This document shows, in pieces, positions 548-53,343 of a stretch of DNA of 64,000 bases. The position numbers and the translations under genes are program-made. The notes under the pieces are model-generated. The model was not told the origin of the DNA, did no database searches, and saw nothing but the letters and a program-made list of their open reading frames with translations. Position 1 is the stretch's first letter. Every line of letters begins with the position of its first letter. The stretch spans positions 416,001 to 480,000 of the forward strand of contig CM000152.2 in assembly GCA_000004695.1 (NCBI GenBank). Reading direction: 5' to 3'. This DNA is from Dictyostelium discoideum (taxonomy: Eukaryota).

Positions 548-3500
548 ATGAAAGTTTTTTTATTAATATTATTGGTTTGTTTTATTTCTATTAATGTTGA
601 TGCATTTCATAATTATAGAGCCAATTGTGATTACACCTCTTGTCCTAGAGAATTTAGTTGCCATGTAATCAATAGAAATATCACTGCTTGTTTACCAGAT
701 AATGATATTTGTAGAAATTTTCCATGTCCACAGGGTAGTCATTGTTTCAATGGTGAAAGAGGTCCTGGTTGTTTTGATGATATCCATTATCCAAATTTAT
801 GCTATGTAACCCATTGTTCATTGGATTATGATTGTAGAATGGTTAGAGGTGATCCAATATGTTTAAGATTTCAAAATGTTAATCCAACTAATACTCCAAC
901 CCCCACCCCAGTTCATTGTACCACTTGTGCTGAACTAGCTTCTACTTGTCACTCTGATGGTTTAGTTTGTAGAACTATTGTTAATCCCAAGTGCCGTGGT
1001 AATTCAATAAAAGCTCTCGCCAAAACTAAAGCATGTTGTCCATATATTGCATTTTGTGATTCAAATTCAACCTCACACACAACTGGGGTACAAACAACAA
1101 CAGGAAGAAGTACGACTGGTGTACAATCAACAACTGGTAGGAGTACAACTGGTAGAAGTACAACTGGTAGAGGTACAACTGGTACAAGTACAACTGGTAC
1201 AAGTACAACTGGTACAAGCACAACTGGTAGAAGCACAACTGGTACAAGTACAACTGGTACAAGTACAACTGGTAGAAGTACAACTGGTACAAGTACAACT
1301 GGTACAAGTACAACTGGTACAAGTACAACTGGTACAAGCACAACTGGTACAAGTACAACTGGTACAAGCACAACTGGTACAAGTACAACTGGTACAAGTA
1401 CAACTGGTACAAGTACAACTGGTACAAGCACAACTGGTACAAGCACAACTGGTACAAGCACAACTGGTACAAGTACAACTGGTAGAAGCACAACTGGTAG
1501 AAGTACAACTGGTAGAAGTACAACTGGTAGAAGTACAACTGGTAGAAGTACAACTGGTAGAAGTACAACTGGTAGAAGTACAACTGGTAGAAGTACAACT
1601 GGTTCCGCTTCAACCACAGGAAGAGGTACAACTGGTTCTGCTTCAACCACAGGAAGAGGTACAACTGGTTCTGCTTCAACCACAGGAAGAGGTACAACTG
1701 GTGCTGCTTCAACCACAGGAAGAAGTACAACTGGTAGAGGTACAACTGGTAGAAGTACAACTGGTAGAAGTACAACTGGTTCCGCTTCAACCACAGGAAG
1801 AGGTACAACTGGTTCCGCTTCAACCACAGGAAGAAGTACAACTGGTTCCGCTTCAACCACTGGAAGAAGTACAACTGGTTCTGCTTCAACCACAGGAAGA
1901 GGTACAACTGGTTCTGCTTCAACTACAGGAAGAGGTACAACTGGTTCTGCTTCAACCACAGGAAGAGGTACAACTGGTTCTGCTTCAACCACAGGAAGAG
2001 GTACAACTGGTTCTGCTTCAACCACAGGAAGAAGTACAACTGGTGCTGCTTCAACCACAGGAAGAAGTACAACTGGTAGAGGCACAACTGGGGTACAATC
2101 AACAACTGGTGCTGCTTCAACCATAGGAAGAAGTACAACTGGTTCTGCTTCAACCACAGGAAGAGGTACAACTGGTGCTGCTTCAACCACAGGAAGAAGT
2201 ACAACTGGTGCTGCTTCAACCACAGGAAGAAGTACAACTGGTAGAGGTACAACTGGTGCTACTACTGCTAATTCAATAGGTGGTTTGACAACTGCTGGCG
2301 TCACAACAGTTGCTGGAGTAACTACTGCTACTGCCTCAACCGTTGCTGGAGTAACTACTGCCTCAACCGTTGCTGGTGTAACTACTAATTCAATAGGTGG
2401 TGTAACCACAGGAAGAGGTACAACTGGTGCTGCTTCAACTACAGGAAGAAGTACAACTGGTAGAGGTACAACTGGTGCTACTACTGCTAATTCAATAGGT
2501 GGTTTAACAACTGCTGGCGTCACAACAGTTGCTGGAGTAACTACTGCTACTGCCTCAACCGTTGCTGGAGTAACTACTGGTAGAGGTACAACTGGTTCTG
2601 CTTCAACCACAGGAAGAGGTACAACTGGTGCTGCCTCAACCGTTGCAGGAGTAACTACTGCTAATTCAATAGGTGGTATAACCACTGCTACTGCCTCAAC
2701 TGTTGCTGGAGTAACTACTGCTAATTCAATAGGTGGTTTGACTACTGCTGGCGTCACAACCGTTGCTGGAGTAACTACTGCCTCAACCGTTGCTGGAGTA
2801 ACTACTGCCTCAACCGTTGCTGGTGTAACTACTAATTCAATAGGTGGTGTAACCACAGGAAGAGGTACAACTGGTGCTACTACTGCTAATTCAATAGGTG
2901 GTGTAACCACAGGTAGAGGTACAACTGGTGCTACTACTGCTAATTCAATAGGTGGTTTAACAACTGCTGGCGTCACAACAGTTGCTGGAGTAACTACTGC
3001 TACTGCCTCAACCGTTGCTGGAGTAACTACTGCTACTGCCTCAACAGTTGCTGGAGTAACTACTGCTAATTCAATAGGTGGTTTGACAACTGCTGGCGTC
3101 ACAACAGTTGCTGGTGTCACTACTGTCAATTCAATAGGTGGTGCAACCACTGCCAATTCAATAGATGGTGCAACCACTGCCACTGCCTCAACCGTTGCAG
3201 GAGTAACTACTGCTAATTCAATAGGTGGTATAACCACTGCTACTGCCTCAACTGTTGCTGGAGTAACTACTGCTAATTCAATAGGTGGTGTAACCACAGG
3301 AAGAGGTACAACTGGTGCTGCTTCAACTACAGGAAGAAGTACAACTGGTAGAGGTACAACTGGTGCTACTACTGCTAATTCAATAGGTGGTTTAACAACT
3401 GCTGGCGTCACAACAGTTGCTGGAGTAACTACTGCTACTGCCTCAACCGTTGCTGGAGTAACTACTGCTAATTCAATAGGTGGTTTGACAACTGCTGGCG

Positions 3501-6500
3501 TCACAACAGTTGCTGGTGTCACTACTGTCAATTCAATAGGTGGTGCAACCACTGCCAATTCAATAGATGGTGCAACCACTGCCACTGCCTCAACCGTTGC
3601 AGGAGTAACTACTGCTAATTCAATAGGTGGTATAACCACTGCTACTGCCTCAACTGTTGCTGGAGTAACTACTGTCAATTCAATAGGTGTAACAACTGCT
3701 AGTTCAATAGGTGGTTTAACAACTGCTGGCGTCACAACCGTTGCTGGTGCCACTACTGCCAATTCAATAGGTGGTTTAACTACTGCTGGCATTACAACAG
3801 TTGCTGGTGCCACTACTGTCAATTCAATAGGTGGTTTGACAACTGCTGGCATCACAACAGTTGCTGGTGTCACTACTGCCAATTCAATAGATGGTGCAAC
3901 CACTGCCACTGCCTCTGCCTCAACCGTTGCAGGAGTAACTACTGCTAATTCAATAGGTGGTATAACCACTGCTACTGCCTCATCTGTTGCTGGAGTAACT
4001 ACTGCTTCAGTTGGAGGTTTGACAACTGCAGTTGCCTCTACAGTAGCTGGAGTAACTACTGCTGCTTCAATAGGTGGCGTAACCACTGCTACTGCCTCAA
4101 CCGTTGCTGGAGTAACTACTGCCTCAACCGTTGCTGGTGTAACTACTAATTCAATAGGTGGTGTAACCACTGCTACTGCCTCAACTGTTGCAGGTGTAAC
4201 TACTGCTGCTTCAATAGGTGGTTTAACTACTGCTGGTTTAACAACAGTTGCTGGATTTACCACTGCTGCCTCTGTTGGAGGTTTAACTACTGCTGGTGCT
4301 ACAACAGTTGCTGGTTCAACAACTTCCCCAGCATCAGTAGGTGACTTAACTACTGCTGGAGCAACAACAGTTGCTGGGGTTACCACTGCTGCTTCTGTTG
4401 GAGGTTTAACTACTGCTGGTGCTACAACAGTTGGAGGTTTAACTAATGCTAATTCAATAGGTGGTGTAACCACTGCTACTGCCTCAACGGTTGCTGGTGT
4501 AACTACTAATTCAATAGGTGGTGTAACCACTGCTACTGCCTCAACTGTTGCAGGTGTAACTACTGCTGCTTCAATAGGTGGTTTAACTACTGCTGGTTTA
4601 ACAACAGTTGCTGGAGTAACTACTGCTTCAGTTGGAGGTTTGACAACTGCAACTGCCTCTACAGTAGCTGGAGTAACTACTGCTGCTTCAATAGGAGGTT
4701 TAACTACTGCCGGCATTACAACAGTTGCTGGTTCAACAACAACAGTTGCTGGAGTCACCACTGCTGCTTCTGTTGGAGGTTTAACTACTGCTGGTGCTAC
4801 AACAGTTGCTGGAGTTACTACTGCTGCTTCTATTGGAGGTTTAACTACTGCTGGTGCTACAACAGTTGCCGGAGTTACTACTGCTGCTTCTATTGGAGGT
4901 TTAACTACTGCCAGTTTAACAACAGTTGCTGGTTCAACAACTTCCTCTTCATCAGTTGGTGGTTTAACTACTGCTGGAGCAACAACAGTTGCTGGAGTAA
5001 CTACTGCTGCTTCTGTTGGTGGTTTAACTACTGCTGGTATTACAACAGTTGCTGGAGTTACTACTGCTGCTTCTGTTGGAGGTTTAACTACTGCCGGTTT
5101 AACAACAGTTGCTGGTTCAACAACTTCCTCTTCATCAGTTGGTGGTTTAACTACTGCTGGAGCAACAACAGTTGCTGGAGTTACTACTGCTGGAGCAACA
5201 ACAGTTGCTGGAGTTACTACTGCTGCTTCTGTTGGAGGTTTAACTACTGCCGGTATTACAACAGTTTCTGGAGTAACTACTGCCAATTCAATAGGTGGCG
5301 CGAACACCGCTACCGCCGGTATAACTACTGCTGGAGCAACAACAGTTGCTGGAGTTACTACTGCTTCTGTTGGTGGTTTAACTACTGCCGGTATTACAAC
5401 AGTTGCTGGAGTAACTACTGCTGCTTCTGTTGGTGGTTTAACTACTGGTATTACAACAGTTGCTGGAGTTACTACTGCTGCTTCTGTTGGAGGTTTAACT
5501 ACTGCCGGTTTAACAACAGTTGCTGGTTCGACAACTTCATCTTCATCAATTGGAAGTTTGACTACGGCTGGTTTAACAACAGTTGCTGGAGTTACTACCG
5601 CTGCTTCTGTTGGAGGTTTGACAACTGCCGGTGTAACAACAGTTGCTGGCTCAACAACTTCCCCAGCATCAGTAGGTGGTTTAACTACTGCTACTGCCTC
5701 AACGGTCGCTGGAGTTACTACTGCCGCTTCAATAGGAGGTTTAACTACAGCTGGTATAACAACAATTGCTGGTTCAACAACTTCTGCTTCATCAGTGGGT
5801 GGTTTAACTACTGCTGGTTTAACAACAGTTGCTGGAGTTACTACTTCTGCTTCTGTTGGAGGTTTTACAACTGCCGGTATAACAACAGTTGCTGGTTCAA
5901 CAACTTCCCGAGCATCAGTAGGTGGTTTAACTACTGCTGGTGCTACAACAGTTGCTGGAGTTACTACTGCTGCTTCTGTAGGTGGTTTAACTACTTCTTC
6001 TTTGACAACAGTAGCTGGTGTCACTACTGGTACTGCTTCTGTTGGTGGTTTAACGACTGCTGGTGTAACTACCACCGCTGCTTCTGTTGGTGGTTTAACA
6101 ACTGCAGGTATTTCAACAATATCTGGTGTTACTACTGCCACAGCCTCAACGGTGGCAGGTATGACTACTGCCGCTGCTACATCAGGTGGTGTTTCAACTG
6201 CTACCGTATCATCAGGTGCCACAACTACTCAGGCATCAACACTATTTGGAATAACAACTGCTGCTTCTGTAGGCGCTTTAACAACAGCAGGTATGACAAC
6301 AGTCGCTGGTTTTACTACTGCTGCTTTTGTAGGTGGTTTAACAACTGCTGGTTTAACAACTGCTGGTGTAACTACTACCGCTGCTTCTGTTGGTGGTTTA
6401 ACAACTGCTGGTGTAACAACTACTGCTGCTTCTGTTGGTGGTTTAACAACTGCTGGTGTGACTACTACCGCTGCTTCTGTTGGTGGCTTAACAACTGCTG

Positions 6501-6805
6501 GTGTAACTACTACCGCTACTTCATCAGGTAGTGTTTCAACTGCTACCGTATCATCAGGTGCCACAACTACTCATGCTTCAACACTATTTGGAATAACAAC
6601 TGCTGCTTCAATAGGTGCTTTAACAACTGCAGGTATGACAACAGTAGCTGGTGTTACTACTGCTGCTTCTGTAGGTGGTTTAACAACTGCTGGTCTATCA
6701 ACAGTATCTGGTGTAACTACTTCTGCTTCTGTGGGTTCTTTAACAACTGCTGGTTCAACAACTCGTTCTGGTTCAACAACTCGTTCTGGTATAATAGGTG
6801 GTTAA
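548..6805 (+). CDS. Secreted cysteine-rich / Thr-Gly-rich mucin-like repeat protein (2085 aa, single exon)
   Basis: Continuous ORF with an ATG in AT-rich context. N-terminal signal peptide MKVFLLILLVCFISINVDA. About 170-aa Cys-rich domain (many CxxC / C-P pairs). Then ~1900 aa of hierarchical tandem repeats: STTG[RT] 5-aa units, then GTTGSASTTGR 11-aa units, then degenerate TTAGVTTVAGVTTA(N/A)SIGG units. Codon usage (ACT/ACA, GGT, GCT) fits the + strand only. Predicted to be heavily O-glycosylated and extracellular. Confidence 0.8.
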   Translation: MKVFLLILLVCFISINVDAFHNYRANCDYTSCPREFSCHVINRNITACLPDNDICRNFPCPQGSHCFNGERGPGCFDDIHYPNLCYVTHCSLDYDCRMVRGDPICLRFQNVNPTNTPTPTPVHCTTCAELASTCHSDGLVCRTIVNPKCRGNSIKALAKTKACCPYIAFCDSNSTSHTTGVQTTTGRSTTGVQSTTGRSTTGRSTTGRGTTGTSTTGTSTTGTSTTGRSTTGTSTTGTSTTGRSTTGTSTTGTSTTGTSTTGTSTTGTSTTGTSTTGTSTTGTSTTGTSTTGTSTTGTSTTGTSTTGTSTTGRSTTGRSTTGRSTTGRSTTGRSTTGRSTTGRSTTGRSTTGSASTTGRGTTGSASTTGRGTTGSASTTGRGTTGAASTTGRSTTGRGTTGRSTTGRSTTGSASTTGRGTTGSASTTGRSTTGSASTTGRSTTGSASTTGRGTTGSASTTGRGTTGSASTTGRGTTGSASTTGRGTTGSASTTGRSTTGAASTTGRSTTGRGTTGVQSTTGAASTIGRSTTGSASTTGRGTTGAASTTGRSTTGAASTTGRSTTGRGTTGATTANSIGGLTTAGVTTVAGVTTATASTVAGVTTASTVAGVTTNSIGGVTTGRGTTGAASTTGRSTTGRGTTGATTANSIGGLTTAGVTTVAGVTTATASTVAGVTTGRGTTGSASTTGRGTTGAASTVAGVTTANSIGGITTATASTVAGVTTANSIGGLTTAGVTTVAGVTTASTVAGVTTASTVAGVTTNSIGGVTTGRGTTGATTANSIGGVTTGRGTTGATTANSIGGLTTAGVTTVAGVTTATASTVAGVTTATASTVAGVTTANSIGGLTTAGVTTVAGVTTVNSIGGATTANSIDGATTATASTVAGVTTANSIGGITTATASTVAGVTTANSIGGVTTGRGTTGAASTTGRSTTGRGTTGATTANSIGGLTTAGVTTVAGVTTATASTVAGVTTANSIGGLTTAGVTTVAGVTTVNSIGGATTANSIDGATTATASTVAGVTTANSIGGITTATASTVAGVTTVNSIGVTTASSIGGLTTAGVTTVAGATTANSIGGLTTAGITTVAGATTVNSIGGLTTAGITTVAGVTTANSIDGATTATASASTVAGVTTANSIGGITTATASSVAGVTTASVGGLTTAVASTVAGVTTAASIGGVTTATASTVAGVTTASTVAGVTTNSIGGVTTATASTVAGVTTAASIGGLTTAGLTTVAGFTTAASVGGLTTAGATTVAGSTTSPASVGDLTTAGATTVAGVTTAASVGGLTTAGATTVGGLTNANSIGGVTTATASTVAGVTTNSIGGVTTATASTVAGVTTAASIGGLTTAGLTTVAGVTTASVGGLTTATASTVAGVTTAASIGGLTTAGITTVAGSTTTVAGVTTAASVGGLTTAGATTVAGVTTAASIGGLTTAGATTVAGVTTAASIGGLTTASLTTVAGSTTSSSSVGGLTTAGATTVAGVTTAASVGGLTTAGITTVAGVTTAASVGGLTTAGLTTVAGSTTSSSSVGGLTTAGATTVAGVTTAGATTVAGVTTAASVGGLTTAGITTVSGVTTANSIGGANTATAGITTAGATTVAGVTTASVGGLTTAGITTVAGVTTAASVGGLTTGITTVAGVTTAASVGGLTTAGLTTVAGSTTSSSSIGSLTTAGLTTVAGVTTAASVGGLTTAGVTTVAGSTTSPASVGGLTTATASTVAGVTTAASIGGLTTAGITTIAGSTTSASSVGGLTTAGLTTVAGVTTSASVGGFTTAGITTVAGSTTSRASVGGLTTAGATTVAGVTTAASVGGLTTSSLTTVAGVTTGTASVGGLTTAGVTTTAASVGGLTTAGISTISGVTTATASTVAGMTTAAATSGGVSTATVSSGATTTQASTLFGITTAASVGALTTAGMTTVAGFTTAAFVGGLTTAGLTTAGVTTTAASVGGLTTAGVTTTAASVGGLTTAGVTTTAASVGGLTTAGVTTTATSSGSVSTATVSSGATTTHASTLFGITTAASIGALTTAGMTTVAGVTTAASVGGLTTAGLSTVSGVTTSASVGSLTTAGSTTRSGSTTRSGIIGG
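1087..6790 (+). repeat. Coding tandem-repeat array (15-nt, 33-nt and ~66-nt units) inside the mucin-like gene
   Basis: Visible periodicity agtacaactggta[gc]a (x~35), then ggttc[ct]gcttcaaccacaggaagaggtacaact units, then degenerate gttgctggagtaactactgct units. These generate the spurious long ORFs on both strands. Confidence 0.9.
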
Positions 6806-7107
6806 ACTTGCTATTAAATATATCTTTTAATTAATAAAAATCCTTTGATATTTACAACTATTTTAAATTTAAAACATCTTTGAATTAATATATATATATA
6901 TCTTAAATTAATAAAAATCCTTACTATTTGATATTTACCACTATTTTAAAGATGTTTTAATTTCTTTGGATTTCACATGTGGATCTGAAATTTTGTTAAC
7001 GAGATAACCAAATTAAACACACTGACCAAATATCTTCGATTTCATATTGATTTTTGGTGATATGGATTTTGAAGATTGAAGTGTTGATGTATATAATTTG
7101 GGTGAAG

Positions 7108-7273
7108 AATTTAATTTTGTTGGAGATTTATATAACAATAAACATTATAATTTTAGAATAATAATAATAAAAATATAATACAAGTGAAAATATACCAATT
7201 CAAGTCTTATTGGTTTTAATTATTTTAAAATTATAATAATTTATTGTTATATAAATCTCCGACAAAATTAAAT
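7108..7273. repeat. Imperfect ~55-bp inverted repeat pair (arms 7108-7160 and 7221-7273, 60-bp spacer). MITE-like or foldback structure.
   Basis: Left arm aatttaattttgttggagatttatataacaataaacattataattttagaata. Its reverse complement occurs at 7221-7273 (aatttaattttgtcggagatttatataacaataaattattataattttaaaata) with 3 mismatches. Confidence 0.6.
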
Positions 7274-7630
7274 TCTGATTCATCACAAAAGAATAAACTT
7301 CTACCACGTGGTTATTGTTGATTTACTTGATGATTATTTCTTTGATTATCAAATACTAATTGACATTGTTATTTATATTGTAAATTATGATGATCTAAAC
7401 TATACCTTAGAGAAACGAATCGATTCGTAAATTAAATGTTTAATTTGGTAGAAAAAAAAAAAAAAAAAATGGAAATGGAAAATCAAAAAAAAATAAAAAT
7501 TGTGCAGATTGGAATGACCCAATTAAATAAAAAAAAGTAAAAAAAAATAAAAAAAATAAAAAAATTGAAACAGCACTTTTTTTTTAATTTCATTTATTTT
7601 ATTTTAAATTTTATTATTATTTAATAAACA

Positions 7631-7635
7631 AATAA

Positions 7636-7733
<98 letters not shown>
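7631..7733. repeat. (AAAT)n microsatellite, about 26 units, ending 3 nt before the ints11 ATG
   Basis: Direct reading: aaataaataaataaat... from 7631 to 7733 followed by aaaaATGaca. Confidence 0.95.
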
Positions 7734-7734
<1 letters not shown>

Positions 7735-7736
7735 AA

Positions 7737-10046
<2,310 letters not shown>

Positions 10047-52042: not shown

Positions 52043-53343
52043 TGATTGTGATGAAATTTATAATAATATTATTAATAATAATAATAATAAAAATGGTGAA
52101 TATGAACATGAAACAAATTCAAATAAACCGGTGCTAACTCAACAATTAAAATTAAATATATCGAATGTTGATGTCTCCCAGTCTTCTTCAAATTCTTCAT
52201 CTTTGTCTTCCTCTCCAACTGTTCAAGTTGTGCCAACTCAGCTATTAGCAAATCAACTTTCACAACCATATACAATTAGTTCATCACAAGTTCCTAATAT
52301 TCAACCACAACTCCAACAACAACAGCCACAATCACAAAAACAAACTCAATCACTACCATCATCACCTATGTCATCACTAACTCCAAATATTCAGCAAGTC
52401 CAACAAAAAATACAACAATCAGTACAAACATCTCCTACAACTACACCAAGTAAATCAAATAAAAGTAAATGTCAACCAAAAAATGCACAACAAACAATTG
52501 GGCAAATACCATATATATATAATGGATCTTCTTCTTCTTCTTCTTCTTCTCAATATTCATCCTCTTCTTCAAATAATGAAGAAGAAGATATGGAAGAGAA
52601 ATTAAAAAATAGATCAATTGTTAAAGATAGAATTCAACAAAAGATGAGAAATCAATTAAATCTTTCATTTGCTGATACATCCAAAGAAACATTTGATCAA
52701 GTATTATCAATTCCCACTCCACCACCACCAACAACACCAAGATCAAAAAATACTCAACCAACCACACCACGTTCAACAAATTCATCAAGTCCTTTAACAT
52801 TACCAACTAAAACACCACCACAAACTCCAAGATCAACAAAAAATCAATCTTCACCACCACAAAGACAAAAAACACCTCCACCAATACATAATTTACAACT
52901 TTATTATCAACAACAACAAGAAAAACAACAACAAGAAAAACAACAACAACAATTAAAACAAGAACAATTAAAACAAGAGGAATTAAAACAAGAACAATTA
53001 AAACAAGAACAATTAAAATTAAAACAATTAAAACAAGAGGAATTAAAACAAGAACAATTAAAACAAGAACAAATAAAATTAGAACAATTAAAACAAGAAC
53101 AATTAAAACAAGAACAATTAAAACAAGAACAATTAAAAAAAGAACAATTAAAACAAGAACAAATAAAACAAGAACAATTAAAATTAGAACAAATAAAACA
53201 AGAACAATTAAAATTAGAACAATTAAAACAAGAGGAATTAAAACAAGAACAATTAAAACAGGAACAATTAAAACAACAACAAATAAAACAACAACAGGAG
53301 AAATCAATACAACAACAACAACTCCTTGAACAACAACTCCTTG

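Follow-up and report, generated by a model that had tools for sequence, protein, structure and literature searches.

A probable young inverted duplication and its predicted hairpin RNA between a mucin-like gene and ints11 in Dictyostelium discoideum

Does a long inverted repeat in the intergenic DNA of Dictyostelium discoideum mark a mobile element, a gene for a hairpin RNA, or a local rearrangement of neighboring sequence? The question is raised by a repeat that lies between a mucin-like gene and ints11 in a stretch of 64,000 nucleotides (hereafter the window; coordinates refer to it unless another locus is named). A first-pass annotation had combined this repeat with direct repeats located upstream of it into a single composite, MITE-like non-autonomous transposon, with a transcribed hairpin as a fallback. 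Comparison with orthologous sequences leads us to a different reading, which we consider the probable one: the feature appears to be a young local inverted duplication, and is likely to represent a neutral proto-miRNA or hairpin-RNA locus rather than a mobile element.

The spacer upstream of ints11 and its inverted repeat

The direct repeats and the hairpin share a spacer of 931 bp (6806-7736) between the mucin-like gene and ints11. Syntenic loci were retrieved from recently deposited genomes through Ints11 and the neighboring deoxyadenosine kinase (dAK), which is encoded downstream of ints11. This yielded nine related loci of 21-22 kb each (~190 kb in total): two divergent isolates labelled D. 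discoideum (L001 and L002), a laboratory strain of this species (L004), two 'D. cf. discoideum' lineages (L005 and L006), two D. citrinum (L007 and L008), D. dimigraforme (L009) and D. purpureum (L003). Over a 14-kb overlap, L001 and L002 differ from the window by ~4% in non-coding and 2.6% in coding sequence, and a non-coding divergence of ~4% is well above the diversity usually reported within D. discoideum. This divergence is consistent with the genetically distinct tropical isolates of Holland et al. 2025 (PMC12745789), whose genome set ours resembles, a match made by description and not by accession.

L004 (GCA_054883475.1, chromosome-level) is 100% identical to the window over 6806-7736, and its dAK protein is the exact AX4 reference sequence; the window therefore belongs to the laboratory-strain lineage of D. 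discoideum. By calculation, the hairpin (7097-7289) corresponds to ~502,886-503,078 of CM142509.1 in that assembly. The coding sequences of ints11 and dAK support the tree (((window/L004,(L001,L002)),L006),L005),D. citrinum, in which 11 synapomorphies unite the window, L001 and L002 (versus 2 and 1 for the alternative arrangements) and 16 support the addition of L006 to this group (versus 4 for the addition of L005). Synteny with the window is absent upstream of ints11 in D. purpureum (L003), which was thus uninformative. In that species the mucin-like gene synteny is lost, and a MinC-domain gene on the opposite strand (L003 8700-9844) lies 156 bp upstream of ints11.

The features of the spacer and its borders are as follows.

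Stop at 6805, + strand: end of the mucin-like open reading frame, which is long and serine/threonine-rich
6826-6867, + strand: direct repeat, copy 1, within the mucin-like gene's 3' flank, with AATAAA at 6832-6837
6903-6950, + strand: direct repeat, copy 2; compared with copy 1 it has 6 inserted nt, and it also contains AATAAA
6866-6963, no strand assigned: short inverted pair (6866-6887 and 6942-6963; 22 nt, 86% complementary), located where the tandem copies join and where the duplication ends
6983-6994, no strand assigned: deletion junction (6988/6989) at which the laboratory lineage lacks ~280 bp, with AATTTT on both sides
6989-7096, + strand: older, GC-richer block upstream of the hairpin, recognizable in L006 and partly in L005, with 4 substitutions in 108 nt relative to L001
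7097-7168, + strand: left arm, the putative source copy (duplicated core 7106-7167), with an ortholog in L006
7169-7213, + strand: spacer or loop with a small internal stem (CCAAU...AUUGG), unmatched elsewhere in the window and loci and absent from L006
7214-7289, + strand: right arm, of which 7214-7276 is the putative inverted copy of the left arm, with 2 substitutions relative to L001
7277-7289, + strand: ancestral flank (motif GATTCATCAC at 7277-7286) that happens to lengthen the stem, corresponding to GATTATTATCAC in L006 and GATTACTCTCAC in L005
7330-7418, + strand: 89-nt segment outside the hairpin, deleted in L001 and L002, its 3' part recognizable in L005
7448-7475, - strand: T18 run (an A-run on the + strand), ~160-185 nt from the hairpin, the only T-motif-like element nearby in the window
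7737: start of ints11, the Integrator subunit 11 homolog (exon 1, 7737-7939; exon 2, 8015-10046)

Both borders of the spacer vary among lineages. The mucin-like gene is built of 60-nt-periodic serine/threonine/glycine repeats, and its called products range from 1628 to 2318 aa among close lineages (548-6805 in the window, 2018-8974 in L001, 2766-8936 in L002, 1767-6653 in L005 and 535-6711 in L006). At the other end, an (AAAT)n microsatellite (7627-7733) reaches the ints11 start codon (7737); it is far shorter in L001, L002, L005 and L006, and its length is thus polymorphic between lineages. Small minus-strand genes of 114, 125 and 388 aa are annotated between the mucin-like gene and ints11 in L005 (6765-7161), L007 (6358-7027) and L008 (4795-6890), respectively. 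The D. citrinum one resembles a real two-exon acidic protein, for which tblastn and tblastx found no counterpart in the window. The possibility that the GC-richer block is a relic of these genes was rejected, as neither program detected significant similarity to the D. citrinum gene.

The arms of the inverted repeat had been described as reverse complements of ~55 bp with 3 mismatches around a 60-bp spacer, which is close to what we measured. Positions 7106-7142 pair with 7240-7276 (37 nt, 97% complementary), and the pairing continues between 7144-7167 and 7214-7237 (24 nt, 88% complementary), giving arms of ~62 nt in total (7106-7167 and 7214-7276) around a spacer of 46 nt. Aligned with each other, the arms show 4 mismatches plus indels over 67 nt. 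Weaker pairing lengthens the structure to 7097-7289 (193 nt, with a stem of ~72 bp).

The predicted fold of 7090-7290 has an energy of -68.7 kcal/mol on the + strand (z = -12.3, equaled by 0 of 200 shuffled sequences); the - strand reaches -61.4 kcal/mol (z = -11.9). When both strands of every 200-nt segment with GC below 0.30 in the 64 kb were folded (2382 folds), the hairpin ranked first and second, at -62.4 and -58.7 relative to a mean of -21.0 (sd 8.3). The runner-up, 52481-52720 on the - strand, was set aside as trivial pairing of a GAA/TTC repeat (z = -2.2, unremarkable). Raw folding-energy scans of the window are dominated by the GC-rich repeats of the mucin-like gene. The hairpin itself has a GC content of 0.12-0.23 (~17%), inside the intergenic range; the earlier description of the structure as less AT-rich than its surroundings thus applies to the flanks (0.28-0.29 at 6950-7100 and 0.23-0.26 at 7250-7450) and does not extend to the hairpin.

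Known gene classes were sought in and around the repeat. Coding potential was rejected, as all open reading frames of the region are at most 41 aa and the arm contains 1-nt indels in L001 and L002; when the short open reading frames were concatenated and searched against proteins, in case paralogous copies had been called as genes, no match was obtained at E up to 1. Rfam returned nothing for the hairpin at E up to 10 (searched over 6000-9000) and nothing at gathering thresholds across the window, and a tRNA scan of the window was empty. Below threshold, a perfect 10-bp stem-loop at 7327-7352, belonging to the 89-nt segment that L001 and L002 lack, matches the 'folP' model (E = 0.26). A second sub-threshold match, to mir-190, falls on a short perfect palindrome inside ints11 exon 2 (8692-8736, - strand), with 25.9 bits versus a gathering score of 48 (E = 0.07); this is conserved coding sequence, and the match is most likely due to chance.

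Divergence of the hairpin and its candidate small RNAs

The hairpin occurs at the same syntenic site in four independent assemblies (the window, L004, L001 and L002), and the L001 and L002 versions still fold, with energies of -61.7 and -66.0 kcal/mol. Conservation as evidence of function was considered and rejected, as the window and L001 diverge by only ~4-5% in background sequence and the hairpin does not depart from this level. Specifically, low-GC non-coding DNA of the window differs from that of L001 by 4.3% substitutions, or 5.05% when indel events are counted, and the hairpin (7097-7289) shows 11 events where 9.5 are expected, a difference that is not significant. No compensatory substitutions separate the hairpin of the window from those of L001 and L002, and at least 3 changes in the latter disrupt pairing (a mismatch, a bulge and a C.A). 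Given change at the background rate and no compensatory substitutions, the complementarity of the arms is explained by youth and not by selection.

The alternative that fares best, although we consider it unlikely, is that the hairpin is an unannotated miRNA gene under selection, with a pri-miRNA transcribed from the + strand and a mature 21-mer derived from the right (3') arm. In its favor, the segment 7181-7307, which spans the right arm, the 3' side of the loop and the start of the 3' flank, has only 2 changes relative to L001 versus 6.4 expected (P = 0.046), and the left part (7097-7180) has 9 versus 4.0 expected (P = 0.023), P values that are marginal and that come from a left/right partition chosen after the data were seen. 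One right-arm stem change, A/G at 7261, preserves pairing as G.U on the + strand only. Weighing against selection are the neutral rate of the hairpin as a whole and the uncompensated, pairing-disrupting changes described above.

The energetics are also compatible with an miRNA precursor. Criteria for D. discoideum miRNAs include a folding energy below -0.2 kcal/mol/nt and at least 60% duplex pairing, in addition to at least 10 reads per arm, a 2-nt 3' overhang, a uniform 5' end and DrnB dependence (Liao et al. 2018, PMC6161686). At 37 C the hairpin has a minimum free energy of -0.35 kcal/mol/nt, and at 22 C one of -0.47 kcal/mol/nt, both beyond the -0.2 threshold; nearly every base of its stem is paired. 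Known miRNAs of Amoebozoa have a lower AT content than intergenic DNA (PMC11014262), whereas the hairpin is as AT-rich as its surroundings.

A candidate promoter is located in a segment of ~280 bp that is present in L001 (9129-9408) and L002 (9091-9368), retained in part in L006, and missing from the laboratory-strain lineage. Since L006 keeps part of this segment, the change is a deletion in the laboratory lineage, and the AATTTT found on both sides of the junction suggests that it occurred through microhomology. The segment contains runs of T16 and T22 that are followed by G and lie 166-368 nt upstream of the hairpin; in L001 these T-rich runs occupy 9149-9172 and 9320-9351, with the hairpin starting at 9517, and they are also present in L002. 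D. discoideum pri-miRNAs are preceded by a T-rich start-site motif that is likewise followed by G, and the range mapped for pri-mir-1176 and pri-mir-1177 is 116-281 nt (PMC6161686). Judged by sequence, the two runs resemble this motif, and would be consistent with selection for an miRNA. No such motif is located near the hairpin on the + strand of the window, an absence that counts against the same proposal.

Published miRNA lists were searched with 10-14-mers of both arms, several of which are identical in all lineages. None was found in the supplement and Table S1 of Liao 2018, in Table 2 of Meier 2016, in Hinas 2007, or in three supplementary files of Edelbroek 2024 that include pri-miRNA sequences. 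Because these catalogs were built from small-RNA data of laboratory strains, this result argues against abundant, precisely processed products in such strains, and thus against a selected miRNA gene. It is compatible either with no expression or with imprecise, low-level dicing, and the deletion of the putative promoter segment provides a specific possible reason for it.

Origin of the right arm and of the direct repeats

If the hairpin is young, its formation may be visible in the closest relatives. L006, the nearest cryptic sister lineage, contains the upstream block and the left arm (window 7094-7154 aligned to L006 7082-7143, 89% identity), and its locus lacks the loop, the right arm and any comparable inverted repeat. 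L005 has the flank only, up to 7105, and similarity to the hairpin region was undetectable at the D. citrinum and D. dimigraforme loci. Where the window has its loop and right arm, L006 and L005 have in common a different sequence, GATTYTGATTTT...GATTA, which runs into GATTATTATCAC and GATTACTCTCAC, respectively.

A six-way alignment of the arms indicates the direction and the timing of the copying. At the sites where L006 has AAATTTT, GGGG and AAT, the right arm, read as its reverse complement, agrees with the D. discoideum left arm in having AGAATTT, GGAG and AAC. At one further position the right arm keeps the TT of L006, the ancestral state, and the left arm has C (window) or CC (L001 and L002). 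Over a 50-nt core the two arms differ from each other at 2-3 positions, versus 7-8 between the left arm and its L006 ortholog. Given the shared left-arm states and the closer similarity between arms, the right-arm copy postdates the split from L006. From these alignments, the left arm appears to have been copied in reverse orientation to give the right arm within D. discoideum sensu stricto, at a time later than the L006 split but earlier than the separation of the laboratory lineage from L001 and L002. The divergence between arms is what would be expected of a neutral repeat somewhat older than the split between the window and L001.

We propose that ~62 nt of intergenic sequence (7106-7167) was copied in reverse ~46 nt downstream, to 7214-7276, just before GATTCATCAC, possibly by a replication template switch or a fold-back event. 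The outcome would have been the 193-nt foldback at 7097-7289 with its near-perfect stem of ~72 bp, which has since drifted neutrally.

Alternatively, the hairpin could predate the L006 split, with L006 having lost the loop and right arm by deletion and the D. discoideum arms having been kept alike by gene conversion within the palindrome. The spacer is indeed very prone to indels, as indicated by events of 280 bp, 89 nt, 30 nt and 17 nt among close lineages; in addition, L006 still forms a weak long-range pairing across the region (-35 kcal/mol), and it is the one informative outgroup. This scenario requires gene conversion as an extra process, however, and the sequence common to L006 and L005 at the place of the loop and right arm looks ancestral. 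The similarity between the arms also exceeds that between the left arm and its L006 ortholog, and we regard an older hairpin as quite unlikely.

A MITE-like or foldback (thug-like) non-autonomous DNA transposon, inserted here and fixed, is very improbable. The structure does have long terminal inverted arms (7106-7167 and 7214-7276), a small size and no coding capacity, and the multicopy thug-S element of D. discoideum hosts miRNA hairpins. Terminal inverted repeats do not discriminate a MITE in this case, however, because the whole unit is a palindrome. An insertion would deliver both arms together, and the L006 site already has one arm in place with neither the other arm nor the loop, a pattern that insertion would not give; the relatives carry neither a whole element nor a clean empty site, with the left arm alone in L006 and only the flank in L005. 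The target-site duplication that would accompany insertion does not rise above chance: the best candidate is the 6-mer AAGAAT, whose boundaries lie within the arm and do not coincide with the repeat ends, and flanking matches of at least 6 nt arise in 38% of random placements.

The element also appears to be single-copy within the sequences compared. Neither the hairpin nor its spacer and flanks had a second copy in the 64-kb window or the nine related loci, where BLASTN searches with the hairpin, the flanks, the spacer and the 280-bp and 89-nt segments returned only self or orthologous matches and AT-rich low-complexity noise. An exact-pattern scan of metagenome contigs for the conserved arm core gave 0 matches, and the thug-S miRNA miRNA_can_D3 (ATTAATTTCGGCAGCCATATT) does not occur in the window, even with up to 3 mismatches allowed.

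The direct repeats that had been joined with the hairpin into a unit of ~0.5 kb are a separate matter. The repeat is present in two copies as described, with corrected coordinates and a 6-nt indel that splits it into 6826-6845 / 6903-6922 (20 nt, 95%) and 6844-6867 / 6927-6950 (24 nt, 96%); the mutually inverted decamers noted beside it are also real, and form part of the 22-nt inverted pair. The distance between the repeats and the hairpin is 150 bp in the window and ~430 bp in L001 and L002. With an extra 280 bp between them in those isolates, and each being its own local duplication, the two do not constitute one unit. Both copies of the window map to a single L006 region (6712-6814), which identifies a tandem duplication of ~80 bp specific to D. 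discoideum sensu stricto. In L001 and L002 the repeats are already decaying, with deletions of 17 nt (in copy 2) and 10 nt, and the left member of the 22-nt pair is largely deleted, so this pair is not conserved. By these comparisons, the direct repeats are a tandem duplication of their own, as young as the hairpin, in the flank downstream of the mucin-like gene. The AATAAA in each copy suggests that the duplicated piece is probably the polyadenylation region of this gene.

The least credible alternative is that the palindrome acts only as DNA and yields no RNA product, for example as a cruciform, a fragile site, or an element of replication or termination. Cruciform extrusion is conceivable for a perfect palindrome, and instability of the palindrome would fit both the local surplus of changes in one arm and the numerous indels nearby. 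However, no feature indicates a specific function at the DNA level, the element is restricted to one lineage and evolves neutrally, and RNA polymerase II termination is not known to rely on hairpins.

A possible hairpin-RNA locus at birth

If the feature is a young inverted duplication, as we favor, its most plausible activity would be at the level of RNA. Any RNA polymerase II transcript across 7097-7289 would fold into an extended double-stranded stem. Such a transcript could arise by read-through of the mucin-like gene or, in wild isolates, by initiation at the T-rich motifs 166-368 nt upstream. The predicted stem would be a substrate of the Dictyostelium Dicer-like enzymes and could yield RNAs of ~21 nt. 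The transcribed hairpin that had been offered as a fallback would be a more likely functional reading than a transposon.

A similar path is known from other groups. In the inverted-duplication model of plant MIRNA genes, and at animal hpRNA loci, a local inverted duplication creates a long, near-perfect foldback that is at first diced heterogeneously and may later mature into an miRNA gene. The locus described here differs from the plant model in the source of the duplicated DNA, which in plants is the future target gene and here is neighboring intergenic sequence, with no target relationship apparent.

Within the Amoebozoa, miRNAs turn over very fast, and the origin of new ones is an open question; hairpins have been observed to be gained and lost in syntenic spacers (Edelbroek et al. 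2024, PMC11014262). [quoted passage not shown] These, however, were defined from small-RNA reads, whereas the present hairpin is known from its sequence and does not appear in the supplements of that study. The stem-loop of ddi-mir-1179 also arose in a syntenic intergenic spacer and has a weaker precursor in a relative (an imperfect hairpin at the D. firmibasis site, as in L006 here), but it did so via multiple substitutions (PMC11014262), whereas the stem described here appears to have been made in one step by inverted duplication. Compared through its published miRNA, thug-S is similar in being a small, non-coding, hairpin-forming element that feeds the miRNA pathway (PMC6161686). It differs in being multicopy, whereas the present hairpin has no second copy in the window and nine loci. 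The published thug-S miRNA does not occur in it either, and one arm was in place at this site before the structure existed.

A more specific, and tentative, possibility is that the locus is an miRNA or hairpin-siRNA gene at birth, with the inverted duplication in D. discoideum sensu stricto, the single-arm state in L006, and loss of the T-motif segment in the laboratory lineage. If so, DrnB-dependent 21-nt RNAs would be expected in wild isolates, with few or none in AX2 and AX4, which would explain the absence from the catalogs.

The event itself is of an ordinary kind, a young structural duplication, and is of modest value as a datable hairpin birth. The locus presents a one-step origin of a long perfect hairpin that can be dated, with its precursor in a sister lineage and a candidate promoter segment that is polymorphic between wild and laboratory strains. 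Should it produce no small RNAs, it would illustrate a neutral structural mutation in an indel-prone, AT-rich spacer; should it produce them, it would be a clean natural case, from a lineage that is neither plant nor animal, of an inverted duplication giving birth to an miRNA or hpRNA. The locus would also illustrate that palindromes in such genomes need not be transposons.
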